The position numbers were made by a program, and so were the translations under genes. The notes under the pieces were generated by a model. It saw nothing but the letters and a program-made list of their open reading frames with translations, did not search any database and had not been told where the DNA came from. Positions 14,028 through 39,059 of a stretch of DNA of 64,000 bases are shown in pieces. Position 1 is the stretch's first letter. Each line of letters opens with the position of its first letter. The stretch is from a virus (taxonomy: Duplodnaviria; Caudoviricetes). The stretch is from the IMG/VR virus record IMGVR_UViG_3300044767_000023, positions 1 to 64,000 of that record. The stretch is one strand, 5' to 3'.

Positions 14028-14512
14028 TCTATGATCTCAAATTGTACGTCAGGCAGTTCCACGGTGTAGAGCCGATAGCCGCAATCGGAGTGTAGGAAAA
14101 TCCGGAGAATATATTTGCCGGGCGGGATTGGCTGGTAACCGGAAGTTGAGATGGCGATCTTGACGGTCTCTCCCGGCTTGGCCATCCCGGAGGGGACACG
14201 TTCGCGCCGCAGCAGCAGCATCTCGCTTTCTTCGAAGATGAACTGGTCGCTGGTAACGAGGCAGAGCTTGCTGCGATTGAAGTGCCCACTGAGAACAACC
14301 GAGTCGCCGTACCGGATTGGCGTTCGCTCGATCTTGAGATCACGAACCTCCAACGGCTCGCGCATAAACTCCAGCGTCGTGTAGCCATACGAGATCGCCA
14401 GAGTCGTAATGCCAAACGCCAGGAAGACGATGAAGGGCTTCCACCACACCATCCAAGCCGGCCGAGGCGGCAAAGCTTTATTATTTGAAGAGTCGGAAGA
14501 CATTGCCACCAA
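14024..14512 (-). CDS. Single-TM protein with periplasmic beta domain
   Basis: TM, Cys pair, PPGKYILR; coupled to GT2 by ATGA; start may be MSSD. Confidence 0.65.
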   Translation of the reverse strand: MVAMSSDSSNNKALPPRPAWMVWWKPFIVFLAFGITTLAISYGYTTLEFMREPLEVRDLKIERTPIRYGDSVVLSGHFNRSKLCLVTSDQFIFEESEMLLLRRERVPSGMAKPGETVKIAISTSGYQPIPPGKYILRIFLHSDCGYRLYTVELPDVQFEIIE

Positions 14513-14777
14513 TCGAGATTAGCCAGCCAACGAAGACGCCAGCACCAGTGATCAAGGCTATGGCTCCGAAGCCTTTGTTTAGCAACGCATCAAGTGACTT
14601 TTGTCTTTCCTCTACCGCAACGATGCGTTTATCGTACTCGTCTAGTCTCCTGAGGGCGGATCGCTGGCGCTCCCGCAATAGCGCAATCGCTTCCGCATAC
14701 TTGCTGCGCGGAACACTTTCATCGCGGAAGTCGCCGCGATCATCATCATCATCATCCGTTGGAGGCGGCGGGTTCAT
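14481..14777 (-). CDS. Coiled-coil plus C-terminal TM protein (holin/lysis accessory-like)
   Basis: Directly after the endolysin; GFGAIALITGAGVFVGW TM. Confidence 0.6.
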   Translation of the reverse strand: MNPPPPTDDDDDDRGDFRDESVPRSKYAEAIALLRERQRSALRRLDEYDKRIVAVEERQKSLDALLNKGFGAIALITGAGVFVGWLISIGGNVFRLFK

Positions 14778-17613: not shown

Positions 17614-18024
17614 TTAACTAAAGATTTCATCAGCACGCACTTGTGTCAAAATGGCATCGGTGACGAGCGAAGTTTTCAGCGTCGTCACTTTCTTTTTATT
17701 CAGATCAACCGAGTGGTCGAGAAAAACGACATCCCAATTCTTGGCGTTGCCTGCTACACCACGCCACGCGGCCGCAGTCGCGGCTCGATACTCAGCATTA
17801 GTAAAGCGCCCAGCTAAATCAGTCGAGGAAAGTGATTTGCTCTTGGTGGTAATCGGAATAGTCGCAATGACGTTGTTACCAGCGTCAATCTGCGGCTGCG
17901 TGGCGCTCGCTCCCGGCACCCAAGTCCAAGTCGAACGATCATCACCCTTGCCGACCGACACACTGGCAACGGGCGATACTTCCGAAATTGCATCACTTAG
18001 TGTTCCAGCATCCATCACATCCAC
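17614..18024 (-). CDS. Putative tail fibre assembly/associated protein
   Basis: Immediately follows the long fibre gene. Confidence 0.55.
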
Positions 18025-20600
18025 CCGTCAAAATAAATACCAGATTGGTGGTAAGCATCCCCAGCATCGCCATAAAATGTGACCGTCGAGCCGGTTGCGG
18101 CATACTCAATTGCAAGAAAAGTATGCACACCCAGAGCAGTCGTCGAAAATTCAGCAATCAGAGGACAGAACGTTGCCTGATTTGCTTCGGCAGTCGTACC
18201 GGAAAAGGCACTTGTTAAATCATAACCGATCCCGATCGCACCGCCATTAGTACCAGAAACAATGCCATGAAAGCGTGCAATAAATGCATCTTCCGCTAAA
18301 CCACAAACAAACTTGTGGCCAGCAAGTGAGTTGTTGTTGTATGCACGCCAAGCCGCCGTCGCATAGGTCCAGCTATCAGCTGGTTCGCGCATAAGCGAAC
18401 CAACCCGCCGCCGATTGTAGCAATTCCAAAGACCTAAAAATCCTGCGGTATTAGATGCCCCAAATATCCAATCGAGTTGTGAACTCCCATTGGACAGCGT
18501 TGTACCTACATACGTTCCCCGGCTCGCTGCCGGTCCATTGGTGATCGCAGCGTTGTTGAGCCAAATGCCATTGACGAGAACCAACGCCGTACCGGCAGAA
18601 CGGGTTGTATCACTGGTCCAATCGGGACCGTGACCCACTCGTATGGTGCCCGCATCATTCCACACGAACCAGTCATTGACCTTGAACACACCGATAGCGG
18701 CGGGCGATTTCGTCGTGTCGGTGGTGGCAACACTCAACTCGCTGAATGTCGTCATCACCATGTTAGTGCCATCGTATATCGGTAGCTTGTTGCCGACACA
18801 CGGTGTGTAGTAGATTGTTGTTTTTGCCGCTTGCGTCGTGATCATCACCGCCACGGCACTCTGCAATGTCAGACGGCCTTGCGGTGGAGTCATAAGCGCC
18901 GTTTTGACAAAGGCAGTGGTCGCAATCGACGTGTCGTTGTCGGTGGTCGCGGGTGTCGGTGCCTGTGGGTCACCAGTAAACGTCGGCGAGGCGAGAGGCG
19001 CTGCGCCAATGTCGCTCAATACGGTAGCAGTAGAGACCCCTTGAACGGTAGTTGCCGTCACCCACTTGGCGTATTGCCCGGTCGTGGGCGTGCCGGAATT
19101 GCTGACGTTGCCGCCACTCGAGGTCGAAGTAAGAACGCCGGCAGTAAAATCCAAGCCAGTGCTGACAGTGACCGTGCTCCAAGTGTTTGCTGCACTCCGA
19201 TAATAAATCGCGTTGGTGGCACTCGCCGCGGCGAGTGAAGTCAGATCACCATCGAGCGGTTGCCCACCCAACGTCGTCAGCATCGCCCCGACAGTCGTAT
19301 CATCAAGCACGGTGCGCGCCGCCGCCGTGACTGTCATCACCGAGGCTGTACCTGAGCCGGTGAAGTAAGGAGCGGCATCGGCGGCACTGGTAAGTCCCGC
19401 GATAGCCGTGAGCTCGCCATCGAGTGGCTGGCCACCTAAAGTGGCGAGCATCGCTCCTACGGTAGTGTCGTCAAGGACGGTGCGCGCCGCCGCCGTAATA
19501 GTCATCAGCGCCGCAGTGCCGGAACCAGTGAAGTAGGGCACTTGGTCGGCGGCGCTCGTCAATCCCGCAATCGCAGTAAGTTCGCCATCAAGCGGTTGCC
19601 CACCCAACGTCGTCAGCATAGCTCCTACGGTAGTGTCGTCGAGGACCGTCCGCGCCGCCGCGGTTACCGTCATAACTGCGGCGGTGCCGGAGCCGGTGAA
19701 GTAGGGAGCCGCATCAGCCGCACTGATAAGTCCGGCAATCGCAGTTAGCTCGGCATCGACCGGCTGCGCTCCCAAGGTCGTCCGCATATCGGAGGTAGTT
19801 AGATCATCGAGAACGGTCCTGGCCGCCGGCGTCAGGATGGCGAGCGCAGCCGTCCCTACACCAGTGTAATAGGCGAACCGATCGGCCGCGCTGGTCAGTC
19901 CGGCAATCGCGATTAGGTCGGCATCGAGCGGCTGGAAGTTGTCGGTGACGCTGACCCAACCTGCAGTCGCGGGACTGCCGGAAGTAACGACCCGGCCATA
20001 GACATCGCCATCACTCGGCGCTTCCTCGACAATACCTTGCGGCCCGGCCGGACCGGGATCGCCCGTTGGTCCGGTCGGACCGGCTGGTCCAGTTGCGCCT
20101 TGCGGTCCCGGGACTGTGCTGGCAGCTCCCACCGGTCCGGGCGGGCCAGCCGGACCGGTTGGACCAGCAGGCCCCACTGGACCGGGGGGACCACCGGGCG
20201 TGCCGGGATTGCCTTGCGGGCCTTGCGCACCTTGCGTCCCCGGCTGGCCGGTGACTGCGATCGTCCAGTCGGCGTGCGTTCCAGACCCGCTCTTGAGATC
20301 CATCAGGACGGTCACATCGGTGCCGTCGAAACTCTGGACTACTCCTTCCATCCAGGTGCCGGGCGTGCCAATCGAGGTCGCCCGCACTCGCTGCCCCGCA
20401 ATGAAGCTGAGGCCGTACTCCACCATCGTAAAGGTCTTGGCGATATTATCGACAATCAAATTCGAGGTCAGGCTGGTACCGGCAGCGCGCGGACCGGAGG
20501 CACCATAAGGCGCTGCCACCGCAATCGCAGTAGGAACATGATCGCCGGTCGGGGCGATGACCGGGCCGCGATCGACAACCGAGATGCTGAGGATGGTCAC
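18015..20600 (-). CDS. Long tail fibre protein with collagen segment and 56-aa repeats
   Basis: GPxGP collagen run, EAPSDG..YGR, four [13 protein letters not shown] repeats, [19 protein letters not shown] fibre motif. Confidence 0.9.
19266..19937 (-). repeat. Four tandem 168-bp (56-aa) repeats inside the fibre gene
   Basis: e.g. GGTTGCCCACCCAACGTCGTCAGCAT recurs 336 bp apart. Confidence 0.9.
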
Positions 20601-25003: not shown

Positions 25004-25524
25004 TAGATGGTCACCACTTGATCCCAGAGATACGCGAATTGCATCTGGATGGCTTGCTTAGGCCCGCGGTACATCGTCACAAACACATCAATCTCTTGGC
25101 GGCCAACGCGTGCAGCTTTGACATCAACTGCAGTAGCGATGCCGCGAATGATGAAAGGTCGCAGCGCCTCGCGCGTGTACTGCTCACAGCGCATGACGGT
25201 AGAGCCTTCGATCGAGTTGGCATCGGTAATGCCTACTCGCATCAGCAACCAATTCTTGCAGCCGATCGGCCAGCCGTTCCAAATCTCCTCGGCGTCGAGG
25301 TCGCCCCACCAGCCGCGCCGGTCGGTGCTGTCCGGATCCGGCAGGGTGTCGGTCTCGGAGGCGAGTGCGTCGGTCAGGAGCGCCACCCTAACTGCGGTGG
25401 CTAGCTCCTCTTCCTCGCTCAGGCCTTGCGGTGATTGCAGCCAGTCTGTCAGGGTGCCGGGCAGCGCACCCTGCTGCTTCATCTCGGTTAGGGAGTTCAT
25501 CCCCTTGAGAAGGATATCGACCAT
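25003..25524 (-). CDS. Baseplate protein Mu gp46-like
   Basis: AVRVALLTD, DRRGWWGD, IGCKNWLL. Confidence 0.88.
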   Translation of the reverse strand: MVDILLKGMNSLTEMKQQGALPGTLTDWLQSPQGLSEEEELATAVRVALLTDALASETDTLPDPDSTDRRGWWGDLDAEEIWNGWPIGCKNWLLMRVGITDANSIEGSTVMRCEQYTREALRPFIIRGIATAVDVKAARVGRQEIDVFVTMYRGPKQAIQMQFAYLWDQVVTI

Positions 25525-26273
25525 CAGATGGAAGCCTTACTTAGCGCGCGAATGGTCCCTCGGCAGAAGGCCGGGTGCACGATCTTGTTGTCGGCCACGA
25601 TCTCGTCGTAGCGCGAGGCATCGGAATAGATGCGATAGGAAGTCGCCAGTGCCGGCATCGGGCTGAGGTAGTACCAAAGAATGCTTGGCAGCGGCATCGA
25701 GGTCTGGGCGAGGAAGCGTGCCAGTGTCGCGGCTAGGTTAACCAAGTCCTGATAAACCAGATTGTCGGCATCGTCCGCAGCCATGTCCTTGGCTAGGTCG
25801 AAGCTGGTCTTCATCCGGTCCTGCATAGCCTCGATGTCGTCGCGGCTTTCGAAGGTGGTGACAGCAATGATCTTGCATTGCGACGAGAGCGCATAGAAGA
25901 TGCCGGACTGCGCCGTCCATAACGCGCCCAGCGTTTCCGGGTCTTCGGAGCGCAGCTGGTCGAGTACCGGGTCGAGCTGCGTTACCGTGATCCCAGCCTC
26001 GACGGCAGCATTGAAGCAGGCCAGCATCCGGTCCGGCAGCGTGCTATCCTTAACCGAGGCCGCCACATGGGCGTTGAGATCGCCAACGCGGGTGCGCAAG
26101 TCCGAGCCTTCGCGGCCTTTGTTGGTAGCAGTAAAGCTGATGAGCTTTTCGGTCATCCGCTGAATGATGGCGGCGATCTCCGCATTCATCAGCCGCACAT
26201 TATAGCGGACTTGCAAATCAGAATTGATGATCCCGCCCGGCGGTTCCGGCGGAGTGAGGACTGGGTCAGTCAT
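25524..26273 (-). CDS. DNA circularization protein, C-terminal portion
   Basis: MPALATSYRIYSDASRYDEIVADNKIVHPAF. Confidence 0.75.
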   Translation of the reverse strand: MTDPVLTPPEPPGGIINSDLQVRYNVRLMNAEIAAIIQRMTEKLISFTATNKGREGSDLRTRVGDLNAHVAASVKDSTLPDRMLACFNAAVEAGITVTQLDPVLDQLRSEDPETLGALWTAQSGIFYALSSQCKIIAVTTFESRDDIEAMQDRMKTSFDLAKDMAADDADNLVYQDLVNLAATLARFLAQTSMPLPSILWYYLSPMPALATSYRIYSDASRYDEIVADNKIVHPAFCRGTIRALSKASI

Positions 26274-26275
26274 CG

Positions 26276-26944
26276 CTAACCCTCCTCACGGATTGCGCCC
26301 GGTCCGGAGAAGCGGCGGATCGCGGCCGGTCCCGGCGTCAGGCCTTGGCGGCCACCGATGCCGGCAGCACCGGTGTACTGGAATAACTTCTTGAACGAGC
26401 TCACCGTGGTGATATCAAACTTGGCGGTGGCCTGCTGCAGCAGCGCCTGGGTATCCTCGGCAACCGCGCGCGGGGCTTCGCCCGCCTCCACGAACGCCAA
26501 GTCAAACTCGTAATAAGCACCCTTCTGCCGGCTCTCGGAGATGCCATAACGCTCCACCATTACCATCATCGGCCCGCCGGAACTGGAGCCGTCCCGGCCG
26601 CCGCCGTAGGTCATCGAAAGCGTTGGGTGGATAAGCTCGCCGGGGCCGTCCATTTCCAAGGCCTCGACCAGCGCATTGCGTTGCGCTAGCAGGTTGCCGT
26701 AGGGCGCGCCGGGGCCGTGGTTTAGCTTGCGGTCGTTGAGGATGATGTATGCGCTAAACTGCCAGTGCACGGCCTCGCGTCCCATGTCCTCGGCATAAGG
26801 CAGGTTGCGCTTTGGGTACTGATGCACAACGGTCCGGCGGCCCGACGAGCGGCCACTGCTCTCGACGTGGAAGTACACGCCGCGAAATGACGCCATGCGC
26901 AGCGTGTCGCGCCACTCATTATGGACGTCAATGATCGCGCTCAT
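26276..26944 (-). CDS. DNA circularization protein N-terminal domain (DNA_circ_N)
   Basis: ASFRGVYF, GRRTVVHQYP, EDMGR, GPGELIHP. Confidence 0.9.
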   Translation of the reverse strand: MSAIIDVHNEWRDTLRMASFRGVYFHVESSGRSSGRRTVVHQYPKRNLPYAEDMGREAVHWQFSAYIILNDRKLNHGPGAPYGNLLAQRNALVEALEMDGPGELIHPTLSMTYGGGRDGSSSGGPMMVMVERYGISESRQKGAYYEFDLAFVEAGEAPRAVAEDTQALLQQATAKFDITTVSSFKKLFQYTGAAGIGGRQGLTPGPAAIRRFSGPGAIREEG

Positions 26945-27861
26945 TAAGACTTATCCTTCTCATCCTGCTTAACGAGGATCGGGACCGTCGCCCAGCAGCC
27001 GAACTCATCAACCCAAATGCGCATATCCTTGCAGCGAATATGGGTGTGCTCCTTGTCCACCAGGAAGGACTGCTTCTCATCGCCATAAAATCCAACGACC
27101 TTTTCCCCGGTTAGTTGGACGGTCGTAGAGCCATGCTTGACGGTGATGGTATTGCCGCCGCCATCTATGTCGATGAAGGTCGATGACTCCTTCTTGAGAA
27201 GTGGCCTTTGGCCTTCGGCTTTCTTCTTCTGCTGCTGTCCGCCACCACCGGCCGGAGCTGACTGCTGCGAGGAATCATCATCGACCTTGACGAGCTGCAA
27301 TCGGATTTTGTTTTTATCGGCGCGCGTGGAGAGGTAGGCACCGGGCTTCAGGCCGGACTTCTCATCACCGCCCGCGAAGTGCAGCTGGATGCCTTTGTCA
27401 GCTTGATGGTAAAGCGAGACATCGCCTTCACGGCCGCCGTGATCTTCCTTGCCTTGGCCGTCCTCGTTCTCCAACATCATCTGATGGCGCGGGTCTTGCA
27501 GGTTCTGGACCGAGGGATCGGAGCGGCTGCCATTAGCGTACGAGGTAAGGCCAACCGCACTCTTTCCTTTCGGCTGGTCGTCATCTTCGAACGCGCCGCC
27601 GCCACCATTGCCAGCGGACTCGCCGTCACCACCGCCGCCCTTTTCGCCGCCGCCTTTGTCTTCCTCCTCGTCCTGCTTGGCGGGCCAATAGGCAAACCCG
27701 TAAGGCTGCACAATCGGCACGCCTTTGGGACTGTCGTTGCGGCCCGCATCAAGGTCGGCGCTGGGGAAGATAGTGTTGTGCTTGACCTTGCGCGTGGTGG
27801 CGCGCGAGGAGCTGCCGAGCTTGGCAGAGTGTGCAGAACTTCCGACCGTCTCTCTTCTCAT
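26944..27861 (-). CDS. Baseplate spike, Mu gp45-like
   Basis: QPYGF, NGSRSDP..DPRH, EGDVSLY; position between gp44-like and gp46-like genes. Confidence 0.7.
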   Translation of the reverse strand: MRRETVGSSAHSAKLGSSSRATTRKVKHNTIFPSADLDAGRNDSPKGVPIVQPYGFAYWPAKQDEEEDKGGGEKGGGGDGESAGNGGGGAFEDDDQPKGKSAVGLTSYANGSRSDPSVQNLQDPRHQMMLENEDGQGKEDHGGREGDVSLYHQADKGIQLHFAGGDEKSGLKPGAYLSTRADKNKIRLQLVKVDDDSSQQSAPAGGGGQQQKKKAEGQRPLLKKESSTFIDIDGGGNTITVKHGSTTVQLTGEKVVGFYGDEKQSFLVDKEHTHIRCKDMRIWVDEFGCWATVPILVKQDEKDKS

Positions 27862-28952
27862 TTAAGGCTAGGTCCCTTCTGGCCCAGTTCATTCTCGAGC
27901 TCGAGTGTCGTGCGGGTGCCGCTCTTATCGTCCTGCGTAAAGGTCACCGACTTGCAAATCAGCGACTCGTTCATAATCAGCATCGGTGACTTGACGTGCA
28001 CTTGGTTCCACGGACGCCACAACACTCCGCTGGTGCGGCCACCCCTCGGCCCGCCTCCGTTGAACCATCCTTGCAGGACGGCTTCCACTTTGATCTGCTC
28101 GCCATTGATGGCGCCGTTCTCCGACCCACTGCGCTGGCTAGCGCCACTTTGCTGGGCCGGCATCTCCGCCATACTGACGATGGGCATGAACATATCGGTG
28201 CCCGCTCCCATCGACTGGGCAAAGCCACTTCCCATATTGCCGAGCGGCGCGCTAGTCGTTGGGTGCCCCCACTTTTGCGGCGTCGGCGCGTCTTGCCCCA
28301 AGGTGAGAAACGGACCGGAGCCGAATTCCATCGAAAGCGTCTCGCGGCCTTCCAGCATATTGACGCCTTCCTCCACCTGCCCTTGCCCTTCGGAATAGCC
28401 CGGGGCAGTGCCCCAGAACGCATCGCCTTTCATCGGGTCTACACCGAGCACGATCGAGCGCTGGTTGGCTAGCGTCTGCATCGCCTCGAAGGTCGTCTGC
28501 CCGGTTACATTGACGCGCGGGAACGGCTCCATATTGATGCCGGGCTTAGGCTGGAATTGCAGGCCGTATGGCTTGAGCAACGCACTCGCAATCTCGGGAT
28601 AAGTCTTGTCCTTCATCTCGCCGCCCTTGATGGTGGCAGCGCCGTTCACGGTCGAGTAGGTGTAGGACTTGCCGGTGATCTCGACGCCGTGGGACTTCTC
28701 GGTAAAGGCCACTTGCCGGGTGGTGACGCGCCCGCCGATGGCATACTCACCACCGAGTGTTACCGTGCAGTGCGCGCCGGGACGGATCTGCTGCGCCGCG
28801 AAGGCTTTCGCAAATGGCGTGAACTCAGAGCAGGTGAAACGGTAGTAATTGAACGCTTCCTTCTGGCACAGATAAACGGTGATCGACTTCCACTCGGTGT
28901 AGAGCTTGCCATCGACCGTTAGGACGCAGACTTCCCTCTGATTAAAAGCCAT
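27858..28952 (-). CDS. Baseplate hub / tail protein Mu gp44-like
   Basis: LTVDGKLYTEWKSI, VEITGKS, LWRPWNQVHV, GTRTTLEL. Confidence 0.85.
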   Translation of the reverse strand: MAFNQREVCVLTVDGKLYTEWKSITVYLCQKEAFNYYRFTCSEFTPFAKAFAAQQIRPGAHCTVTLGGEYAIGGRVTTRQVAFTEKSHGVEITGKSYTYSTVNGAATIKGGEMKDKTYPEIASALLKPYGLQFQPKPGINMEPFPRVNVTGQTTFEAMQTLANQRSIVLGVDPMKGDAFWGTAPGYSEGQGQVEEGVNMLEGRETLSMEFGSGPFLTLGQDAPTPQKWGHPTTSAPLGNMGSGFAQSMGAGTDMFMPIVSMAEMPAQQSGASQRSGSENGAINGEQIKVEAVLQGWFNGGGPRGGRTSGVLWRPWNQVHVKSPMLIMNESLICKSVTFTQDDKSGTRTTLELENELGQKGPSLK

Positions 28953-28957
28953 CTCAC

Positions 28958-31171
28958 TTACTCTGCATATTGCTGCTCGGTAGCGCGCTCGTTCCGGTCA
29001 GTGAAGGTGCGATTGATGTTGATGCCACGATCGGACGGCTCGAGGTCGCCGTCAGCGGTCGCATCTACCTTGACGCCTTTGGGGCCCTTCACATTGACTT
29101 CAAGGTCTAACTGGCCGTGCCGCGTCCACTTGATGGCACCGCCTTCGATGCGCTTGCGCTCCTGGTCCATCTCGGTACGGGCCCGTAGAATGTCCTCGGT
29201 CCGCAACACCTGATATTTGAAGTTCGTCCCAGTGGGGAAAACATCGCGGCCAGTTTCTTGTGCACTCTTCTTGGTAGGGGCATAGCCGAGGCGCTCCGCC
29301 AAGGCCGCATTCATGTCGAGGCCTTTGTCCTTGGAGCGCGGATTGATTTGATTAGGACCAATATCAACTTGCCGCGCCATGACGCTGGGTCGTCCTTGCC
29401 TAGGGTCCCAAACCCGTACCGGAGCGCCTTGCTGCGCCTCCGGTCGGCCAGCGCTAGCCTTGTAAGGAAGCGCCACGCCGGGAACGTCCTGGCCGTAGCC
29501 ACCGTAGTTTGGCTTCGGCTGTCCCTTCATCGGGCCGCTGGTGTACTTATCGTCCGGGTCGTCCCAACCAATCTGGCTGCCGAGCTGCTTGGAGAAGTTG
29601 CCGAACCAACTGCCCTTGACTGAGCGCGGACCAGCTGGCGGCATCCCCGGCGCTACCGGCTTGCCGGCCGCCAACGTTTGATCCTCCGTTTGGTTGAACT
29701 GGGCACTCGCCCCACCGCCGCCAAAGCCACCGCCTTTCGTTTGCATGGGACGCGTTCGAGCCTTCTGGCTAACACCGCCGTCGCTGCTGCCTCCGCCCGC
29801 TCCACCGCGGAGGTCGCGCAGCACGTCCACAAACCGCCGCATCTCAAACGCTAGCTTGCCGACTTGGTCAACCAAGGACTCGCCGGTATTCTCGGCGGTG
29901 ACGGTAGTAGTGCGCCGATCCTCGATGTGCTTGCTTCCGACTGCGACATTGGCCGCACTCAGGATGCCGCTCATATCAAATTTTGCATCCGACTCGGGCT
30001 TGGTCCTAAACGGTAATGGTCCGGCATCGTCGCCACCGGAAAACCTCTGCGGCGTGTTGTTGTCTTGCGTCACCTGAGAAGGCAGCTGGATCGACTCGGT
30101 GGACGGTCCGGTGCCACGGCGATTATTTTCACGCCAGCGATTGACGAATTGGATCCAGCCATCAATCGTCTCTACGAAAGCGGCGAGGTCGCCGGTGAAC
30201 GCGACCAGCTCCTCTCCTACCCAGGCCAGTATCCGGTCGATGCGCTCCCGAAGCTTGTCCCACGGATAATCCAACAGCGCTTGGACGACGGCTCTGATTT
30301 GGTCACCGAACTTCTTGGTATTCTTTTCGTTGAAATACTCCGACAACATTACAATCAGGCGCTTGAAGGTCGGCATCGCCGCCGAGATAATGCGCTTGCT
30401 GATTTGGCTGAGCGTGCGCTGCAGCTTCATCGACTCGATCTTGTAGCGCTTGGCGGCGGCTTCGCTGGGTATGACTACATTGTTAATCTTCTCCAGCGTA
30501 GCTAGCATCTCGTTCCAGGCCGCACCCTTTAGGCCCATCGCCTCGCCGTAGGCTTCCGCCGCCCATCGTCCTTCCTCACCTTTCCCGGACGCTGCCGCCA
30601 TGCGCCGGAGGACTTCCAGCATCGTAGCTTCGAGGCCGTTGCGCGCTAGCGAGTCCTGCAGCTCTCTGGCTACGATCGTGCCAGTGTCGCGGAAGCTACC
30701 TTCCTCCAACTTATCGCGCGTGGATGATTCCGTACCTCGCTGCAAGTCCCGGACGCTGCGCGCTAGCCGTTCGATGCCGGTGCGCGCGTCGCGGTCGCTT
30801 ATGCCCCGGGCCTTGGCCGCAATAACGAGGCGCTCAAAGGCCTCGTAAGTTAGGCCGACTTCGCGCGCCACTGCGAATTGCTTGAGACCGCTATCGGCAA
30901 AGCGATCGAGCGAGCTGGCGATGTTGGCAAGTACGGCGACGAAGGAGCCGCTGAAGATCGCCGAGCTGGCACCAAGCGCCAGTATCCCCGACTGCAGCTC
31001 CCGGCCGACGTTCTGGGCCGTCCGCTCGAGCGCAGCTAAGGCCTTCTGGCCGATCGGTGTGGTGCGCTTGGCCTCCTCCCGGACCCGCTTGAGCGCGGCA
31101 TGAACCGCGGTGGCAGTGCCGCTAACTTCGTCCTTGAGGACGATATCAATTTCGGTGGCGCGTCCCGCCAT
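28958..31171 (-). CDS. Tape-measure-like protein 3 with RlpA/DPBB-like lytic transglycosylase cargo
   Basis: Helical N-half paralogous to neighbours; GSWFG..GVALP..VRVWDP..QVDIGP..GLDMNAALAERLG. Confidence 0.7.
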   Translation of the reverse strand: MAGRATEIDIVLKDEVSGTATAVHAALKRVREEAKRTTPIGQKALAALERTAQNVGRELQSGILALGASSAIFSGSFVAVLANIASSLDRFADSGLKQFAVAREVGLTYEAFERLVIAAKARGISDRDARTGIERLARSVRDLQRGTESSTRDKLEEGSFRDTGTIVARELQDSLARNGLEATMLEVLRRMAAASGKGEEGRWAAEAYGEAMGLKGAAWNEMLATLEKINNVVIPSEAAAKRYKIESMKLQRTLSQISKRIISAAMPTFKRLIVMLSEYFNEKNTKKFGDQIRAVVQALLDYPWDKLRERIDRILAWVGEELVAFTGDLAAFVETIDGWIQFVNRWRENNRRGTGPSTESIQLPSQVTQDNNTPQRFSGGDDAGPLPFRTKPESDAKFDMSGILSAANVAVGSKHIEDRRTTTVTAENTGESLVDQVGKLAFEMRRFVDVLRDLRGGAGGGSSDGGVSQKARTRPMQTKGGGFGGGGASAQFNQTEDQTLAAGKPVAPGMPPAGPRSVKGSWFGNFSKQLGSQIGWDDPDDKYTSGPMKGQPKPNYGGYGQDVPGVALPYKASAGRPEAQQGAPVRVWDPRQGRPSVMARQVDIGPNQINPRSKDKGLDMNAALAERLGYAPTKKSAQETGRDVFPTGTNFKYQVLRTEDILRARTEMDQERKRIEGGAIKWTRHGQLDLEVNVKGPKGVKVDATADGDLEPSDRGININRTFTDRNERATEQQYAE

Positions 31172-33393
31172 CAGGCTGCTGCCGTTATCTCGCGCTCAAC
31201 CGTTACACGCTCTTGCGCCATCAGCGTGCCTTCCTTGACTTCGCTATTTACTTTGGTGCCGCGGGCGCTTCGAACCTTGACCTCGAGGTCGAGCGAGGCT
31301 CCCTTGTCGTCCTTCTCCCAACCGTTGATGGCGCCATCGACTTGCTTGCGGCCTTGGGCTCTCTCGCGCCGGTCCTTCTTGATGGCATCGATGATCGTCA
31401 TTCCCTCGTCCTCTTCCTTGTGCCCGGGATTGACTTGACCATGACCGTAGAGCGGGGTGTTGGGATAGTATTTCTCGATGAACTTTTTAGCCGACTCGAT
31501 CTGCGCTGGCGTCACGTCCTTGTCATCCTTGGCGATGACTTCCATACCGACGGTGTTGCGGTTGGAAAGGCCTTTGCCGAGCGGGCCCCAACCCGTCCGC
31601 ATATGCGACGAGCCCGGTCCGCCAATCTGCTTGATGGTGCCGTCGCGCTCCATCACGTACTGTACGCCGAGGCCGCGCTGCTGAAGAGTGGATGCAACTC
31701 CACTGGCATCACCGCGGCCGCTGGTGTGGTGCATGATGAAGGCGGAAGGCGCAGCCCCGCCTACCGCGGTCACGGCTCCCGGTTCGATCGCGCCCGCCGG
31801 AGCCTGCGGATCATTATCAGTAGTACGAGGATTAGCACTAGGTCCACCGGGCTCGGAAGTGCCGCCGCTTCGGCTGCGGCTGGAGCCGCCCCACGAGCCG
31901 CTACTGCCCCCACCACCGTAGCTGCCGCCACTGCCGGAAAAGGAGAAGACCTTGGTTTGTACACCGCCGGAAAGAATGGCGTAGAGATCGTCGAACTCAA
32001 CCCGCATCTCGTTGAGCTGCTGCTGGAACCTCGTCAACATAGGACGATCGGAGAACAGCAGGACGCCGCTTATGTCGGCTCGCTCCAGCGCATTGTCGTT
32101 GACCGCTACGGGCGCGGCGCGGTTGCCAATACTGCCCAGGCCAAGTTGCTCGGCGAGCGCCCCGCCTTCCATCGTGCCGGTCTCTACCGTCAGACTGTCG
32201 GAAGCGCCAAAGCGGCGGTCCTCGATGTTCACGGACTCAGGCAGATCGCCGGCATTCTCCAGCTGGTATTTTTCATACTCCTTGCTGACTTGGTAGTCAG
32301 GCCTCGCCAGGGGCTCGGAGCCGCCGGAGAAATTGACCGGAGTCATACCGCCGCCAGTGCTGCCGGTGATATCCTGCTTCTGCCAACTGGCGACGGTAGC
32401 AACGATGCGAGCCAGAGCGATGCCGACCCGTACCATGTTGGCGACAAACTTGCTAATGCCGCCACCGAGTCCACCGAGCGCGGCATCAATGCGCTGGCGT
32501 ATTACATCCCACGGCTCGTTCTCGATAATCTCTACCCAGCGTTTGATCTCGGCGATGAGCTTGCCCGCATTAGCGGGTTCGATCATCTTGCTTAGCCAGT
32601 CGGAGAGTGCCGACATTGCCGGCATAAGAGAGATGGCGATTTCGGTGTAGAGATTATCGACCTCGCGCTGCAGCTCTACCTGTGCCAGGAGGAACTCGCC
32701 CATCTCCTTTTCGACCGGCTCGAAATCATTCTTGGCGAACTCGTCGATCGCCTCTATGGCTTGGTTCCAGGCCGGGCTTTGAAGGCCGAACGAGTCGCGC
32801 CAAACTTGAGTGGCTTGCCTATCAGCGTCAGTCCCGCCCGCTCCCCGCCGCATCTGGCGAAGGATAATCTTCATGGTCTCGTACGGACGGTCACCGTCGC
32901 GCTCGAGTTGGGCGCGCAGCTGGCGCGCTACCACCGTGCCGGTTCCGAAGGTGCCGCCCTTCTCCAACATGGCGCGGGTATCTGAGTCGGTCCCCCGGCG
33001 CAGATCAAGGACCGCCTCCGCCATTGCCTGTACATCGGCTTCGGCCTGCTCCTTCGAAAGACCGCCCGCCATGCCGATCTTCACGAGCTGCTGGTACTCG
33101 CCCAAGGTCATATTCAAGCGCATGACCGTGGAGTTAAGCGACAGTCCTTTCTGCGCAAACTTCCCAACACTGATTGTCATTCCAGCGAGGCTGGCAACTA
33201 GACCGCCCGAAACTAAGGTGCCGGAAATGCCCAGCAATCCGAACACACTGCCGAGATTGCGGCCGACGCCATAGGCCATCGTCTCGGAGAAATCGACCGC
33301 CTGCTTGGCGAACTGCTTCTTGATCTTCTCCAGCGCGACTGACACATCGTCGCGAATATGGACGGTTGCGATAGGAGTTGGCTGCTTGGCCAT
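31171..33393 (-). CDS. Tape-measure-like protein 2 with N-acetylmuramoyl-L-alanine amidase (Amidase_2) cargo
   Basis: FIMHHTSG, YVMERDG, NRNTVGMEV, TPAQIES, YGHGQV. Confidence 0.78.
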   Translation of the reverse strand: MAKQPTPIATVHIRDDVSVALEKIKKQFAKQAVDFSETMAYGVGRNLGSVFGLLGISGTLVSGGLVASLAGMTISVGKFAQKGLSLNSTVMRLNMTLGEYQQLVKIGMAGGLSKEQAEADVQAMAEAVLDLRRGTDSDTRAMLEKGGTFGTGTVVARQLRAQLERDGDRPYETMKIILRQMRRGAGGTDADRQATQVWRDSFGLQSPAWNQAIEAIDEFAKNDFEPVEKEMGEFLLAQVELQREVDNLYTEIAISLMPAMSALSDWLSKMIEPANAGKLIAEIKRWVEIIENEPWDVIRQRIDAALGGLGGGISKFVANMVRVGIALARIVATVASWQKQDITGSTGGGMTPVNFSGGSEPLARPDYQVSKEYEKYQLENAGDLPESVNIEDRRFGASDSLTVETGTMEGGALAEQLGLGSIGNRAAPVAVNDNALERADISGVLLFSDRPMLTRFQQQLNEMRVEFDDLYAILSGGVQTKVFSFSGSGGSYGGGGSSGSWGGSSRSRSGGTSEPGGPSANPRTTDNDPQAPAGAIEPGAVTAVGGAAPSAFIMHHTSGRGDASGVASTLQQRGLGVQYVMERDGTIKQIGGPGSSHMRTGWGPLGKGLSNRNTVGMEVIAKDDKDVTPAQIESAKKFIEKYYPNTPLYGHGQVNPGHKEEDEGMTIIDAIKKDRRERAQGRKQVDGAINGWEKDDKGASLDLEVKVRSARGTKVNSEVKEGTLMAQERVTVEREITAAA

Positions 33394-33394
33394 C

Positions 33395-36394
33395 TCACTC
33401 TTCCTCGCTCGAGGCCGAGCTCTTATCGTCCTTGGTATTGCTCACGGTGTTGGGCATCTGGGCGGCGGACTTGCTGCGGGTAGGATTGAATAAGCCTTGA
33501 TCGCTATCGCCAGCACTCGCTTGCTTACTGCTACCAACCTCGATGTCGATGGCAGCCTTGCCGGTCATCACTTTGTTAGCCATGGAATTGACGAGCGAAC
33601 TGTCGACGATCTTACGGGTAGCATCCTCGTCATCGTTGCGCTTGAGCGCGAGCGTGGTGATGTTAGGTGGCTTTCTGCCCAGCTGGGAAACGTCGAAGGT
33701 CTTCGACTGGGCAATGCCGCGAGCAGTGGCCTCCTGCTCAGCTTTGTTGCCGGCATAGGCGCCTAGTCCTTCCCCAACTTTTGCCCCCGATCCGGTTATG
33801 CCCATATGCAGCTTAAGCGCGTCACTCATATAGCCGTAGCCCGCGCCACCAGCTCCCGCCCTCGAGGCCGCCTCGATAAAGGCTAGGCGGCGCGGATCGT
33901 CGCGGGATACAACTGCGCCGGTCTTAGGATCGACGAGGTCAAAGTCGGCGGCCTTTCCTTGGTCGTGGCGATGACTACCCGTTGCGCCCGGAGCGCCCTG
34001 CATCCGCTGGCCGCCGGAAGTAACGCGCACTCGCAGACCAGCTTGCTCGGCAGCGTACTGGAAAGCCGCATCGAGCCTAGGATCAATCCCGCCTTTGCGA
34101 GTGCCAGCGACCTGACCTTGAACCTGCTCGACGAGCGAGGACCCGTCGGCCGCTCGGGCTAATCCTTGCGGCGACAAGCGGTCCGGGCCTAGCATTCCCG
34201 AAAGGTCGATCTCGGAGGTCTGGGCGGTCTTTAGCAGGGAGACTTTAGAGGGATCGACAGCGGCCGTAGCTGGGGCACCAGCTTGGTTTGCAATTTGGTT
34301 AGCGGCCGGCAGCGACCTGATAGTGCGTTGCGGTCTAATGCCAATGACGTTAAACCGATTAGCCATAATGCTGCTGCCGCGCTCTCCGTAATTTCCAAAG
34401 CCGCCGGGATTTTTAGCGGCTTGGTTTGAGTCCCGGACGAAGGCTTTGACCGAGGCATCGACATCGTAGGCGTTGTTTCCCGGAACCTGCTGATGAGAAT
34501 ATTGGAAGACACCAAAGGACCCGCCAGCATCTCCCAAGTTTTTAGTCTTCGGATCAAAGCTTGACTCTTCCTTGGCCACCGCAACGCCAAACCGCGCCCA
34601 CTCTTCCGGCGTCCCTTTGGTAATTCCGAACCTTGCACCGTCGGGCGGAATGCCCTGCGGAGGATTGGCCCGGAACTCGGCCAAGAGTTTTTGGTAGAGA
34701 GCGCCACCACGGGCCGCTTCGGAAGCCGAACCCGGATAAGGACCAGTTGCGTCCACTCCACCACCGGGAGGGTTGGCGCCTGATGCCTGGGTCAAATTCT
34801 GCACCGGGGTAAACCCGCCCGTGCCGCCAGCGCCGGCGGGATATCCTAGCGAGGCCGAGCTGCCCGGCATCGCCGCGGTAGTTGCAGCTGGACGATAGGG
34901 AGAGCTAGCGCCGGCCGGGGTAGCTGAACCCGGAACTGCCGGACCCGAAGAACCGGGCGAGGCGCTATCGCTGTAAGGCGAACTGCTGGAGGCGGTGTAG
35001 GCGCCGCCAGTTGGACCCATTCCACCGGCACTGCCGCCGGGCGTTTGCGCTACGTCGCCGCCACCACGAAGCAAGTCATTGAGCCGACGCACCTCGTCAG
35101 TAACGTCCCGCATCTGGTCGTTGAGGTCTTCGGTAGTTTTCGCCCGACGAGTAACGGAAGAGAAATCAGTTGCTCCGCTTCCGCCACCGCTGAAGCGCAT
35201 CGGAACTTGGTTTGGATTAGGTGGTTGATCGTGGGGTTTCTGCGACAGACCGCCTTTGCCGCCTAGAATGTTTCCCCATTGCCAGCCCTTCCAGATGTCC
35301 ATATCCGGAAGCCACTGAGTGCCGCCCTTCTTCATCTTATCTTTAGCTGCATCACCACGTCGAGCAAGATCGTCGAACGTGTCCATGATGCGCTTGTAGT
35401 CTTCGATGTCAGCTTCGATCAGCTTCTTGCCTTCGCGGAACAACGAGATCACGCCACCGACGGTGGAGCGGGCGCCCTTCTGGATATCCTCCCACGGAAG
35501 ATTCTCTAGCTGCTTGGCGGCATCGACGAGTGACTTTTGAAACTCCTTGCCGGGCTCGGTGCCTAGCCAATTATTGAAAGTCTCCGCCATCCGCGTGAAC
35601 ACCGGCATCAACTCATTGCCGATGGCGGTGGTGAAGTTATCGACCTGCAGGCCCAGCAAGGTAAACTGCAGCTGGAGCTTCTGCGCGTCCTCGACGCTGA
35701 CGACCGTGACCTTGCCGATCTTTTCGATCAGCTCGGCACCGCGCTCCCAGCCCTTACCATGCAGGCCGAGCGCCTTCTCGATGGTAGTAACGCCCCACTG
35801 ATTGCCTTCCTTGGCATACTGCGCGAGCTTTTGCAGCATGAAACGGAAGCCCTGCTCAGGGCCGCCAGCTTGCACTTCCTTCATGAGCGCATCGGCTAGG
35901 GCAGCGCCGGTACGATCAGCCGTGCTCTTGACTAGGTCATTGTATAATTCGGAGAAGCGCTCCTTGCGGCCGAGCTCCTGGATCTTCCGCAGCGCCGTCT
36001 CGACATCATTGGCGGCGGTTTCGCTCGCCATGCCGGCAGCTTTACCGGCCAGCTTCCAACGCTCCAAGGCTTCGGCACTGGTGCCAAGCTCTTTGGCAAG
36101 ATAGTGTAGCTGCAGGCCCTGCGCACTGAAGTCCGCTAACGCCTTGCCGCCAGCAACAAGGCCTGCAACTAAACCACCACCTAGCAACCCGCCGGTAATG
36201 CCGAGCAGGCGCATGCCCGACATAAGCTCGCGGTGCGCTACCGACCAGACACGATTGAGTGACTGGATCTCCTGTTGGACGCGGCCGGTGCTAGCCTTGC
36301 TATCGACATCGGCTAATGCCAGCCGCAGCTTCTCGAGGTTAGCGAGAGCTTGCCTGCCATCAGCCTTGACGACAATCTCAATGCTATCGGCCAT
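33395..36394 (-). CDS. Tape measure protein 1 with lysozyme/SLT-like and peptidase M15-like cargo
   Basis: Follows frameshifted chaperone; VAKEESSF..GSFGVFQY; RVTSG..HDQGKAAD..LHMG. Confidence 0.8.
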   Translation of the reverse strand: MADSIEIVVKADGRQALANLEKLRLALADVDSKASTGRVQQEIQSLNRVWSVAHRELMSGMRLLGITGGLLGGGLVAGLVAGGKALADFSAQGLQLHYLAKELGTSAEALERWKLAGKAAGMASETAANDVETALRKIQELGRKERFSELYNDLVKSTADRTGAALADALMKEVQAGGPEQGFRFMLQKLAQYAKEGNQWGVTTIEKALGLHGKGWERGAELIEKIGKVTVVSVEDAQKLQLQFTLLGLQVDNFTTAIGNELMPVFTRMAETFNNWLGTEPGKEFQKSLVDAAKQLENLPWEDIQKGARSTVGGVISLFREGKKLIEADIEDYKRIMDTFDDLARRGDAAKDKMKKGGTQWLPDMDIWKGWQWGNILGGKGGLSQKPHDQPPNPNQVPMRFSGGGSGATDFSSVTRRAKTTEDLNDQMRDVTDEVRRLNDLLRGGGDVAQTPGGSAGGMGPTGGAYTASSSSPYSDSASPGSSGPAVPGSATPAGASSPYRPAATTAAMPGSSASLGYPAGAGGTGGFTPVQNLTQASGANPPGGGVDATGPYPGSASEAARGGALYQKLLAEFRANPPQGIPPDGARFGITKGTPEEWARFGVAVAKEESSFDPKTKNLGDAGGSFGVFQYSHQQVPGNNAYDVDASVKAFVRDSNQAAKNPGGFGNYGERGSSIMANRFNVIGIRPQRTIRSLPAANQIANQAGAPATAAVDPSKVSLLKTAQTSEIDLSGMLGPDRLSPQGLARAADGSSLVEQVQGQVAGTRKGGIDPRLDAAFQYAAEQAGLRVRVTSGGQRMQGAPGATGSHRHDQGKAADFDLVDPKTGAVVSRDDPRRLAFIEAASRAGAGGAGYGYMSDALKLHMGITGSGAKVGEGLGAYAGNKAEQEATARGIAQSKTFDVSQLGRKPPNITTLALKRNDDEDATRKIVDSSLVNSMANKVMTGKAAIDIEVGSSKQASAGDSDQGLFNPTRSKSAAQMPNTVSNTKDDKSSASSEEE

Positions 36395-36586
36395 CTAGCG
36401 TCCGGCCTCTTCTTCTTGCGCGCGGCGCTCGTCCGCGAGCTTCTGGCTTAGCTTGCTAGTCCAGACCATATGCCGCCGGATCGCAGAGAGTGGTTTAGCC
36501 AACCACAAATCCGGCTCGACGTTATAGAACCGCGCGAGCCGATAGCAATCCAGAATGAGGTCGTCTACAGATCCGGCGTGAAAAAA
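36395..36586 (-). CDS. Tail assembly chaperone, -1 frameshift extension (gpT-like)
   Basis: FFHAGSVDDLILDCYRLARFY..; reached via T TTT TTC at 36580-36586. Confidence 0.75.
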   Translation of the reverse strand, partial: FFHAGSVDDLILDCYRLARFYNVEPDLWLAKPLSAIRRHMVWTSKLSQKLADERRAQEEEAGR

Positions 36587-36939
36587 GGCAACAGCTGCCA
36601 AGCAATGCTATTCCAGTCCTTGGGGTTCATCATCCTAATCGAGGACGGCGGGACTGACGCCAGCCTCGACATCATTTGCGTCATCTTCTTTTCGTTGAAC
36701 GAAAGCTTGACGGTCTCCCCTTGGAAGGGATCGATATCGACCGGATTGCCACAGCGTTCGATATCGCCGCCATTTGGCTCACGGAAAACAAGCTCGCTCA
36801 CTTCCTCGCCGTTGGCCTGGATTGGTTTACGCAGCTTGACCGTGATAGGCCCGGATAGGAGCGCGGCGCCGTTAGTCTTCTGCGGCGGCGCAGCCTCTTC
36901 TTTCTCCGGGGTCTCGTTGTCAATATCTTCTTCTGCCAC
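36565..36939 (-). CDS. Tail assembly chaperone (Mu gp41/gpG-like)
   Basis: VKLRKPI..ELVFREP..LASVPPSSI..PFF; between tube and TMP. Confidence 0.85.
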   Translation of the reverse strand: MAEEDIDNETPEKEEAAPPQKTNGAALLSGPITVKLRKPIQANGEEVSELVFREPNGGDIERCGNPVDIDPFQGETVKLSFNEKKMTQMMSRLASVPPSSIRMMNPKDWNSIAWQLLPFFTPDL

Positions 36940-36965: not shown

Positions 36966-37328
36966 TCAGAGCAGCTCCTCACAGGTTGTGCCTTCGAAGC
37001 GCACCCGGAATTGCCCTTCACGAGAATTGATTTCGATAGCGCTGCGGCACCAAGCTTCCTTGAGCACGTAGACGCTATTGTTGGCGAGCTCGGCGGTGAC
37101 GGTAACGTCCGTCATTGCCTCCAGGTTCTCCACCGACATGCCTTGCACGTCAGTCAAGTCCCCTTCGATGTAGGGCACCCTCGGCAACTCAGAGTACCCA
37201 TGCACATAATCTTGACCGGCAATGCCAGCGCGCTCGAGTGCAGATGGCGATACCGTGAAGTTGCCTCGCAACGGGAGCAGTGCCCCGTCTACCTTGAAGA
37301 AGGCGATACCTGCAACGCGCTGACCCAT
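36966..37328 (-). CDS. Tail tube protein (Mu gpM-like)
   Basis: RVAGIAFFKVDG, HGYSELPRVPYIE, VTAELAN, RFEG. Confidence 0.92.
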   Translation of the reverse strand: MGQRVAGIAFFKVDGALLPLRGNFTVSPSALERAGIAGQDYVHGYSELPRVPYIEGDLTDVQGMSVENLEAMTDVTVTAELANNSVYVLKEAWCRSAIEINSREGQFRVRFEGTTCEELL

Positions 37329-37463: not shown

Positions 37464-39059
37464 CTACGCCGCCTGACCCAACGTAGTGGCACCGGCCGTG
37501 ATCTCGGCGTCGTTGCCACGGTTGTACTGCAGACGGAACTGGACGAGCACCGCGAAGATGCGGAGCTGGTTGACCAAGTCCGGCGGGTAAAGCACGTTCA
37601 CGCGGTTGGGATTATTCGGATCACGCTCGACGATGAGGTGGCTCTTGAAGTTGGCCACATCCTCCACCAGACCGTTGAACTCGTCGATGCGATACTGCGC
37701 CACGAGCTCGGCCTTGATCGACTTCGGTGTGACGATCGCCTGCCCTACGCCGAACCTCGTCCCATCGTTCGCCAGCTTATGGCGGGGGAACTTGCTGGTA
37801 ATGGCGTGGCGCTGGTTCCGAATGAGTCGGGCCAGCGTGGCCATCGTGGTGACCAGCTCATACGCATCATCACTCTGGGAGTAGAGATTGAGTTGGTAGG
37901 TCGTGGTTTCCCGCAGGATCATCGGGAAGTTATCGCTGCCGCATTTCTGCGTCGCCAGACCATTGCCGCTGATAGAGTTTAGCTCCATCAGGTTGAACCG
38001 GAAATCTCCCGGAGCCGGCAGGACCAAGTTGAGCGACAGGGTTTGCAGCGGCCGGGCGGGATCGTTGGTAAGCGCCCGCGCTGCTTTCGCCGCATAGGCC
38101 GAACACCACTCATATATTGGCGTCGGCGACATATCCTCTACCGCCATCACCGAGGTCAGTCCGCTGTTGCGGGTTGCTCCCCAGATAATGAGGTCGGCAT
38201 AGTTGTCGCGGCGGGCAGTGAAGATGTGGCCATAAAGCTGACGCATCCAGCCCCATCTTCCAGTATCGCTAAAGCCATACTCCTGCTCCCAAGCCAGCAG
38301 GCTGGTGGAGTCGGTATAGGGCATCGCGACGTACTCAAACTCACGCTCGCCGAGGTTGGCGATAGCGTCATCGAAGTTGGGGATGCCAGCGCCGCCGGTA
38401 AGCCGTCCGAACACGTTGGAGGGCGGGGACTCGCCGGAGCCGGAGAAGGTAAGCAGCAGGCCGATAGGAGTTTCCTCACCACCGATCTTGCCGTAGTAGT
38501 TCAGGAACATTCCGATGTCGTTGCCGTTATGGCCCGGCGTCTTGCAGCTTACCGTGACCCGGTTCGTAGCCGAGGTTGCGGTCACCGGGAGGAACGGCGT
38601 CTCGTTGATCTCGGCCGCGATCTGGGTGGCGATCTCGTCCGGGGTATCGCTGGCGCCAATGGTCACCGCGATCTTATGACCGGCAACATAGAGATTGATC
38701 ACACCGGCCTCGAACATCGGCGGCGATTGGGTGCCGGCAACGTCGATGGTCCCGCTAGCGGCGGTGGAACCTTCATCCGGATCGACGCCCAGGCCCCACA
38801 CTTCGTGTGCGAAGTTGTTGGCGAAGAAGGCCTTGAACATGCAGCTGATCTCCGAGCCTTGACCATAGGCCCGATCGACTTGCGCTTGCGTGCCCATCGG
38901 CCGCGGAATGTCGGGCGGCTGCAGGCCACTCGCCATCTTGGCGCCAACGACGAGCGCCGGCTGGCGGACAATCGGCAAGCCCGCCTGACTTGGATCGACC
39001 TCCGCCCAGTAGAGCGGGATGCGCCACTGAGCGGGAATGCTATTAAACGAAATCGGCAT
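37464..39059 (-). CDS. Tail sheath protein (Mu gpL-like)
   Basis: ISFNSIP..PLYWAEVD, DPARPLQTL, KFPRHKLANDG, RVNVLYPPDLVNQLRIFA. Confidence 0.95.
   Translation of the reverse strand: MPISFNSIPAQWRIPLYWAEVDPSQAGLPIVRQPALVVGAKMASGLQPPDIPRPMGTQAQVDRAYGQGSEISCMFKAFFANNFAHEVWGLGVDPDEGSTAASGTIDVAGTQSPPMFEAGVINLYVAGHKIAVTIGASDTPDEIATQIAAEINETPFLPVTATSATNRVTVSCKTPGHNGNDIGMFLNYYGKIGGEETPIGLLLTFSGSGESPPSNVFGRLTGGAGIPNFDDAIANLGEREFEYVAMPYTDSTSLLAWEQEYGFSDTGRWGWMRQLYGHIFTARRDNYADLIIWGATRNSGLTSVMAVEDMSPTPIYEWCSAYAAKAARALTNDPARPLQTLSLNLVLPAPGDFRFNLMELNSISGNGLATQKCGSDNFPMILRETTTYQLNLYSQSDDAYELVTTMATLARLIRNQRHAITSKFPRHKLANDGTRFGVGQAIVTPKSIKAELVAQYRIDEFNGLVEDVANFKSHLIVERDPNNPNRVNVLYPPDLVNQLRIFAVLVQFRLQYNRGNDAEITAGATTLGQAA

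Follow-up and report, generated by a model that had tools for sequence, protein, structure and literature searches.

Three tandem tape measure paralogs with different predicted wall-degrading domains in the tail module of a Mu-like phage

The tape measure protein (TMP) of a tailed phage is usually treated as a single-gene, homo-oligomeric ruler, a view on which the prediction of tail length, the annotation of phages and the structural modelling of genome delivery all depend; what, then, is to be made of a tail module in which three genes occupy the place of one? The question is raised by positions 1 to 64,000 of the IMG/VR virus record IMGVR_UViG_3300044767_000023 (Duplodnaviria; Caudoviricetes), a linear record of 93.7 kb from an uncultured phage, with an estimated completeness of ~85%; we call this 64,000-nucleotide stretch the window. 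A Mu-like contractile tail module lies on its minus strand, and three abutting open reading frames (ORFs) of 999, 740 and 737 aa (copy 1, 33395..36394; copy 2, 31171..33393; copy 3, 28958..31171; all on the minus strand) lie within the module, with exactly the coordinates and strand given in a first-pass annotation made from the DNA letters. The junctions are tight: copies 1 and 2 are joined as TGA-G-ATG, copies 2 and 3 overlap in TGATG, and a gap of 5 nt separates copy 3 from the next gene.

Sequence comparison identifies the three ORFs as paralogs, as the first-pass annotation had proposed. They are mutually 23-27% identical, and BLASTP relates copy 1 to copy 2 at E 9e-16, copy 2 to copy 3 at E 7e-39, and copy 1 to copy 3 at E 3e-25. 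The suggested hhalign comparison of the N-terminal halves, made with ortholog profiles, revealed strong similarity over ~290-340 N-terminal columns (E 7.7e-39 over 338 columns, and 8.4e-30). The shared N-terminal scaffold, delimited by hhalign against the copy 2 and copy 3 profiles, covers aa 1-345 of copy 1 (35360..36394, minus strand) and contains a hydrophobic Gly-rich segment at aa 63-89. All of the motifs quoted earlier are present in the translations (LG..G..VA.L...F..GL, PWE/D, P.xFSGG, IEDRR, G.KV, and LDLEV/IDIEV), and we found one more element common to all copies, an amphipathic helix immediately before the Gly-rich linker.

The copies also end alike. The C-terminal module of copy 3 is located at 29000..29170 (minus strand; RK..E...W..G.LDLEVNV.GPKGVKVDA...NINR), and its equivalents at ~31189-31356 in copy 2 and 33440-33643 in copy 1 (both on the minus strand). 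That all three share a C-terminal strand was clear for copies 2 and 3 (hhalign E 2.4e-10) and weak for copy 1 in a pairwise comparison with copy 2 (E 0.004); an alignment of 19 C-termini, including those of single-copy relatives, bridges all of the forms by the pattern R..D...G..h-x-h-x-V.G....R, and the C-termini of the single-copy TMPs mix features of the copy 1 form and the copy 2/3 form. Since the N-terminal scaffold, of ~340-450 aa, and the C-terminal module are both kept, each paralog is a complete TMP. The part before the linker is of roughly equal length in the three copies (about 400-485 aa), and what sets the paralogs apart is the stretch that runs from the Gly/Ser-rich linker, a Gly/Ser/Pro linker in copy 1, to the C-terminal module.

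Is the shared scaffold that of a TMP? On the sequence evidence it is, and the TMP-like identity proposed earlier is borne out by four kinds of observation: family matches, a PDB sequence match, gene position and single-copy relatives. The PHROG TMP families 2276, 9570, 8462, and 8125 were matched by up to 10 of the 18 scaffolds collected from the window and its relatives (best E 3e-12; copy 1 itself matches PHROG 2276 at E 2.3e-8), and a profile of the 18 scaffolds has as its top PDB match the TMP gp41 of Pa193 (PDB 9B45, chain 9b45_a; E 0.0028), at equivalent positions. The genes lie where a TMP is expected, between the two flanks named in the first-pass annotation. Upstream is a frameshifting tail assembly chaperone (Phage_TAC_7), whose short form is at 36565..36939 (minus strand; Pfam PF10109, E 2.2e-11; PHROG 166) and whose -1 frame extension is predicted from the sequence and translation at 36395..36595 (minus strand), with a slip site T TTT TTC at 36586-36580; the -1 frame is open as far as a TAG (36397-36395) that abuts the ATG of copy 1. 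Directly 3′ of copy 3 is the baseplate hub gene of the GpP/gp44 type (27858..28952, minus strand; Pfam GpP-like_1st and Gp44-like_2nd). We read 11 genomic contexts in related contigs (numbered loci with the prefix L). Two of these contigs, L004 and L021, have a called 68-aa ORF that overlaps the chaperone in the same place as the extension in the window; and in the more distant relatives L010 and L011 (1094 aa), and L022 (911 aa), a single scaffold gene fills the whole space from TAC_7 to DNA_circ_N.

What the three copies carry between the linker and the C-terminal module was asked of Pfam in two ways, with whole proteins and with the cargo segments alone, at the positions proposed earlier, which proved correct. 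Whole-protein Pfam scans gave no match for any of the three copies; since the segment-only scan recovered Amidase_2, this blank was an effect of masking or bias. The cargo of copy 2 is firmly assigned by sequence to Amidase_2 (PF01510, N-acetylmuramoyl-L-alanine amidase), as had been predicted: scanned as a segment on their own, aa 547-657 (31423..31755, minus strand) match it at E 1.6e-8 and reach 35.4 bits where the cut-off is 26; PHROG 1794 (amidase) is matched as well. PDB sequence searches with single cargo segments returned nothing useful.

For copy 3 the evidence is structural. Its cargo domain (aa 515-656; 29204..29629, minus strand) has no Pfam match up to E 10, PF03330 included, and no useful PDB sequence match; Atlas gave DPBB_1 at 0.83, a weak lead. 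An AF2 model built with the eight orthologs (pLDDT 72-89 in the core; overall mean 61) has only DPBB proteins among its top Foldseek matches, and VIA aligns it at Z 9.3 to the RlpA-like PA4485 (91 of 94 residues, root-mean-square deviation 2.7, 25% identity), at Z 9.3 to kiwellin, and at Z 7.9-8.3 to bacterial expansins. In addition, GSWFG...VRVW...VDIGPNQ...LDMNAALAE is kept in all eight copy 3 orthologs, in which the acidic residues D603 and D619, candidates for a putative lytic transglycosylase activity on denuded glycan, are invariant. The model thus makes a good case for the DPBB/RlpA-like fold that the first-pass annotation had suspected from motifs. A region search for more homologs of this cargo added none. 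We also noted a DPBB domain at residues 284-392 of PDB 8kea_A (“baseplate-initiators” of cyanophage A-1(L)), with Z 8.7 to the copy 3 cargo model; since this is a myophage baseplate protein, DPBB domains at the tail tip have a structural precedent.

Copy 1 carries two domains, and both calls are of moderate confidence. For aa 751-874 (33773..34144, minus strand), in which an M15-like zinc peptidase had been predicted, an invariant triad stood up, a Pfam M15 model did not, and the fold gave leads of middling score. The AF2 model (pLDDT 81, pTM 0.82) has as its top Foldseek and VIA matches hedgehog-N, the T5 and RB49 L-Ala-D-Glu peptidases, LysB4, Ply500, ChiX, VanX, and MepA (Z 5.0-5.8). When 48,161 chains were scanned without bias, nine of the 11 top matches were LAS proteins, with Z only 4.5-5.3. 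The pattern G-S-x-x-H-D-x-G-x-A-x-D...H is invariant in 19 homologs, as is the H-x6-D...H putative metal triad (H71, D78, and H124 of the domain; H810, D817, and H863 of copy 1), the spacing of which matches that of the T5 endolysin ligands. None of the 19 homologs matches a Pfam M15 family in this region, and no PDB sequence match was obtained. Because the Z scores reach only 5-6, we call the domain a putative divergent LAS/M15-like zinc peptidase at moderate confidence.

The other domain of copy 1 (aa 555-700; 34295..34732, minus strand), marked by the catalytic-Glu motif AKEESSF, had been read as lysozyme/SLT-like. The window sequence itself stays below the Pfam cut-offs (Phage_lysozyme2, SLT, and SLT_3 at E 0.07-0.19), while its copy 1 ortholog L004_1 passes the SLT gathering score (22.2 against 21.3 bits), so that the reading holds with moderate confidence. 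Seven of 20 homologs of this cargo match SLT somewhere in the protein, and a profile of aa 555-700 aligns to the Glu35 motif of C-type lysozyme (E 0.016). Aligned with that motif are E56 and S57 of the domain, the catalytic Glu and the Ser after it at the end of the first helix, which vary little or not at all across the 20 homologs. When 1.84 billion representatives were scanned in full by HMMER with both copy 1 cargo domains jointly (aa 555-900), 531 homologs emerged, of which 200 lie at E <1e-10. The two domains were aligned separately, a joint MAFFT alignment with 37 short homologs having been discarded as misaligned.

Do these domains serve lysis or entry? The lysis region lies elsewhere in the window (10059-10508, 11523-11885, and 14787-16361, minus strand) and consists of a Pam3 gp28-type holin and two PG_binding_1 proteins of 149 and 524 aa; because these sit apart from the TMP genes, the TMP cargo is more likely to act in entry.

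How widespread is the triplet, and how did it arise? It is intact in at least four other contigs (L004, L005, L007, and L013), at 41-65% identity, with lengths of 897/686/712 aa in L004, 1045/745/877 aa in L005, and 995/743/839 aa in L007. L006 has copies 2 and 3 and, at the contig edge, the C-terminal end of copy 1; L012 and L014 have copies 2 and 3, on shorter loci. The relatives come from metagenomes of soil or rhizosphere. Copy 1 orthologs are found in L004, L005, L007, L013, and L021. L021 combines a copy 1 ortholog that carries Amidase_2 with a copy-3-like gene and is, from its sequence, a two-copy stage; L008 has two tandem scaffold genes (771 and 1007 aa, the latter with Peptidase_M23), and L023 has at least two. 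The survey of relatives that the first-pass annotation had proposed thus revealed one, two, or three copies and a variable cargo. Of 5.8 billion clusters, only eight are homologous to copy 3. A tblastn search with copy 3 through 50,697 phage records gave no match, and the copy 3 alignment, run over 185,579 genomes of bacteria and archaea, found no prophage copy. The sole match of copy 1 in the phage records is an 85-aa stretch of “putative tail proteins” of Rhizobium jumbo phage.

A maximum-likelihood tree of the 18 scaffolds, in which two single-copy rows sit on long branches and are placed unsurely, recovers a clade for each of copy 1 (support 100/99), copy 2 (100/100), and copy 3 (93/96), and joins copies 2 and 3 as sisters (95/96). 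This topology implies two successive tandem duplications, one that separated copy 1 from the ancestor of copies 2 and 3 and one that separated copy 2 from copy 3. The L008 pair appears as an independent duplication (98/97), and the simplest history inferred from the sequences runs from one to two to three copies, with at least one further independent duplication. The order of the genes after the TMPs also varies. In the triplet clade and L023 the hub gene (GpP) is followed by a gp45-like gene, a spike candidate at 26944-27861 in the window, and by DNA_circ_N (25524-28952 for this stretch of the window, minus strand), whereas in L008, L010, L021, and L022, with one or two copies, DNA_circ_N directly follows the TMP; since the order differs between the two groups, a rearrangement accompanies TMP expansion. 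Some copy 3 orthologs have 100-150 extra residues after the C-terminal module, charged and helix-like, that the window copy lacks (L005:12110-12634, L007:8920-9337, and the C-terminus of P0006; two of them end in ..NPRTG.P.G..I).

With these relatives in hand, the suspicion that the triplet is an artefact, be it a misassembly, a set of decaying duplicates, or one TMP gene wrongly split, can be dismissed as scarcely credible: the three ORFs are open, each with its own start and full N- and C-terminal modules, the same three genes are present in independent assemblies from different samples, and each copy forms a conserved clade of its own.

The tree also bears on a division of labor, in which copy 1 would be the true tape measure and copies 2 and 3 tail-associated lysins that keep the TMP ends for chaperoning and for docking to the hub or tip, with no role in tail length. 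Copies 2 and 3 do form a separate clade, and copy 1 is the longest of the three and the nearest in architecture to the single-copy relatives; its extreme C-terminus (LF..TRSK....PNT....DKSS.S.EE) is strongly conserved in orthologs and resembles the F....R..QM end of single-copy TMPs, and in the jumbo phage MarsHill, discussed below, the second TMP-like gene is annotated as a tail lysin. However, copies 2 and 3 keep the whole scaffold of ~450 aa, at 41-65% identity across relatives, which goes far beyond the needs of a docking tag, and their pre-linker lengths are near that of copy 1. We therefore consider such a division unlikely.

Does each cargo belong to one copy? The first-pass annotation had suggested a swappable cargo slot, and comparison of the orthologs supports this. 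In copy 1 of L004 an amidase, 57% identical to the domain of copy 2 in the window, replaces the LAS domain, and copy 2 of L004 and of L006 has a domain with an HExxH motif instead of the amidase. In copy 1 of L005 a DPBB-like segment related to the copy 3 cargo (E 1e-5) replaces the SLT-like domain. Among wider relatives the cargo includes Peptidase_M23, Phage_lysozyme2, and a weak glucosaminidase match. From these sequences, cargo domains move between copies. The phage of the window and L004 each have predicted tools for glycan, amide, and peptide bonds, and the allocation of these to the paralogs differs; as the set is kept whole while domains shift between copies, the enzymes may act together.

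This exchange is one of the observations that speak on whether different tails hold different TMPs, i.e. whether the paralogs form alternative homotrimers, one per tail, giving three kinds of virion per burst as bet-hedging across host wall types. TMPs normally self-associate, and the mere 23-27% identity between the paralogs could block mixing. Against this, the genes appear translationally coupled and share one chaperone, we saw no sign of a switch, the differing lengths would give differing tail lengths, and the set of glycan, amide, and peptide enzymes is kept whole though its members change copies; we judge this scenario quite improbable.

We favor, as the probable explanation, that three intact, long-retained, and tightly linked complete TMP paralogs with different muralytic cargo are loaded as a mixed bundle and expelled to attack the wall; that one tail holds such a mixed, hetero-oligomeric tape measure is plausible from the gene content. 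The mechanism we propose is as follows. The three TMPs would be co-translated from one late transcript, chaperoned by the single frameshifting TAC, and would enter the lumen of the tube jointly, in one mixed bundle. The cargo would lie just above the tip and, upon contraction, exit first, C-terminus first, opening the wall, after which the hydrophobic N-terminal segments could help to form a membrane passage. In this way a single virion would bring in enzymes for three kinds of bond, those of the glycan, the MurNAc-L-Ala amide, and the stem peptide, with a possible synergy, since the amidase would make the denuded glycan that RlpA-type enzymes favor. By dividing the cargo among paralogs, a bundle of three or six chains could carry more enzyme types in a narrow lumen than a homotrimer. 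Parts of this scheme have published counterparts: the tail tip of Pa193 is bundled with the C-termini of three TMPs (PMC11456595); the tube of P7-1 is filled by six copies of the TMP, three of which form a cork (3-helix) (PMC13338283); the hydrolase borne by the TM4 TMP is reported to aid infection (PMC1796659); and RlpA is reported to prefer denuded glycan (PMC6895207).

A more specific form of the favored explanation, which we put forward tentatively and with less than even confidence, is that the TMP is an obligate hetero-oligomer (a 1:1:1 trimer or 2:2:2 hexamer), derived from a duplicated homo-oligomeric TMP, such that the lumen would carry one or two copies each of four wall-degrading enzymes instead of three to six of one. 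Several points count against the mixed bundle or its strict form. The presence of the three proteins in the virion, and their mixing in one tail, are predictions from the genes, and catalysis by all of the cargo domains is a prediction; the LAS and SLT-like calls have middling scores (Z 5-6, and Pfam E 0.07-0.19 for the window sequence). The unequal totals (999/740/737 aa here; 897/686/712 and 1045/745/877 aa in relatives) are awkward if total length sets tail length, and a strict 1:1:1 trimer is at odds with the two-copy relatives L008 and L021.

The remainder of the module follows a Mu-like order. Along the minus strand, the sheath gene (37464-39059) and tube gene (36966-37328) precede the TAC_7 chaperone, TMP copies 1, 2, and 3, the GpP/gp44-like hub, a 305-aa gene, an apparently split DNA_circ_N, gp46, Baseplate_J, and gp48. 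The DNA_circ_N protein (Mu gp43-type; PHROG 184 “baseplate hub”) is apparently split into two abutting genes (25524-26944, minus strand), of which the 222-aa gene corresponds to profile positions 4-161 and the 249-aa gene to 216-403 (profile length 411); the two-gene form is also found in L004, L006, L007, and L010. On the 3′ side of the baseplate genes, an 861-aa protein (18015-20600, minus strand) that contains collagen triple-helix repeats and weakly matches DUF6195 is likely a tail fiber, and a 98-aa ORF (14481-14777, minus strand) matches Pfam DAB2P_C above the cut-off (28.8 bits), probably as an artifact of low complexity or a coiled coil. Relatives show small insertions around the same genes. 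Between sheath and tube, L004 has a gene with a faint NUMOD3 match (L004:1858-2631), possibly a homing endonuclease, and L010 and L011 have an insertion with weak GT8 and GT9 matches and a Methyltransf_21 match (L010:5602-9129, L011:366-3893). L005 and L007 have, between tube and chaperone, an extra 120-aa gene that the window lacks.

Because its members have one, two, or three TMP paralogs and a redistributed cargo, the lineage offers a natural series in which to ask whether the ruler can be a heteromer and how much cargo the lumen can hold. If the obligate hetero-oligomer is real, it would be the first hetero-oligomeric tail ruler to be shown, and its modular cargo slot would be one in which paralogs recombine. 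The lineage also yields compact predicted wall-degrading domains that sequence models mostly miss, including the LAS-like family (~200 homologs at E <1e-10) and a phage DPBB domain, and annotation pipelines that expect one TMP will mislabel the extra copies.

How does the triplet compare with known systems? Our literature search, which covered subscription journals thinly, turned up no account of TMP triplets, of a series in TMP copy number, of TMP paralogs that exchange cargo, or of a hetero-oligomeric or heterotrimeric TMP; most mentions of “two tape measure” refer to the pair of chaperone products or to TMPs split by introns. Polymorphic effector cassettes (Rhs, VgrG/PAAR-linked) likewise combine a constant delivery scaffold with exchangeable C-proximal enzymatic domains. 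This is an analogy only, with no sequence or structural relation, and the cargo described here, unlike that of Rhs/VgrG effectors, is muralytic rather than toxic and internal, before a conserved C-terminal module. The tail module resembles those of Pa193 (with gp41 as the best PDB match of the scaffold profile), Pakpunavirus, and Mu-like phages, and the distant relative L009 has a Pa193/E217-like head module; however, the homology to gp41 is very remote, and Pa193 has a single TMP. TMPs with one embedded muralytic domain are known from the mycobacteriophage TM4 (Tmp; PMC1796659), phiCbK (gp95 with CHAP; PMC3556154), and the Pakpunavirus P7-1 (putative Cpl-7-like; PMC13338283). As in these, a peptidoglycan hydrolase with a presumed role after ejection is borne by the TMP that follows the frameshifting chaperone; unlike these, each with one TMP gene, the present locus has three paralogs and four different predicted hydrolase domains, which are mobile among the paralogs of relatives.

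The premise of the first-pass annotation that a phage has one TMP gene needs a qualifier, since two adjacent TMP-like genes have been reported in Staphylococcus jumbo phages: MarsHill has “two potential tape measure proteins”, of which one bears the annotation tail lysin (bioRxiv 10.1101/2020.12.14.422802), and DC4 has a 1962-aa “tail lysozyme” adjoining a 1990-aa TMP with Peptidase_M23 (PMC10638138). Those genes appear unrelated in sequence to the present ones, since our searches of the phage collection gave no match to them, and we set MarsHill and DC4 apart by their descriptions. What they share with the present phage is that TMP-like genes stand next to one another and that the peptidoglycan hydrolase domains of these genes differ; but in place of two genes of ~1,900 aa in jumbo phages, here there are three, in a 94-kb Mu-like phage, with a series of one, two, and three copies and shuffling of cargo among relatives.

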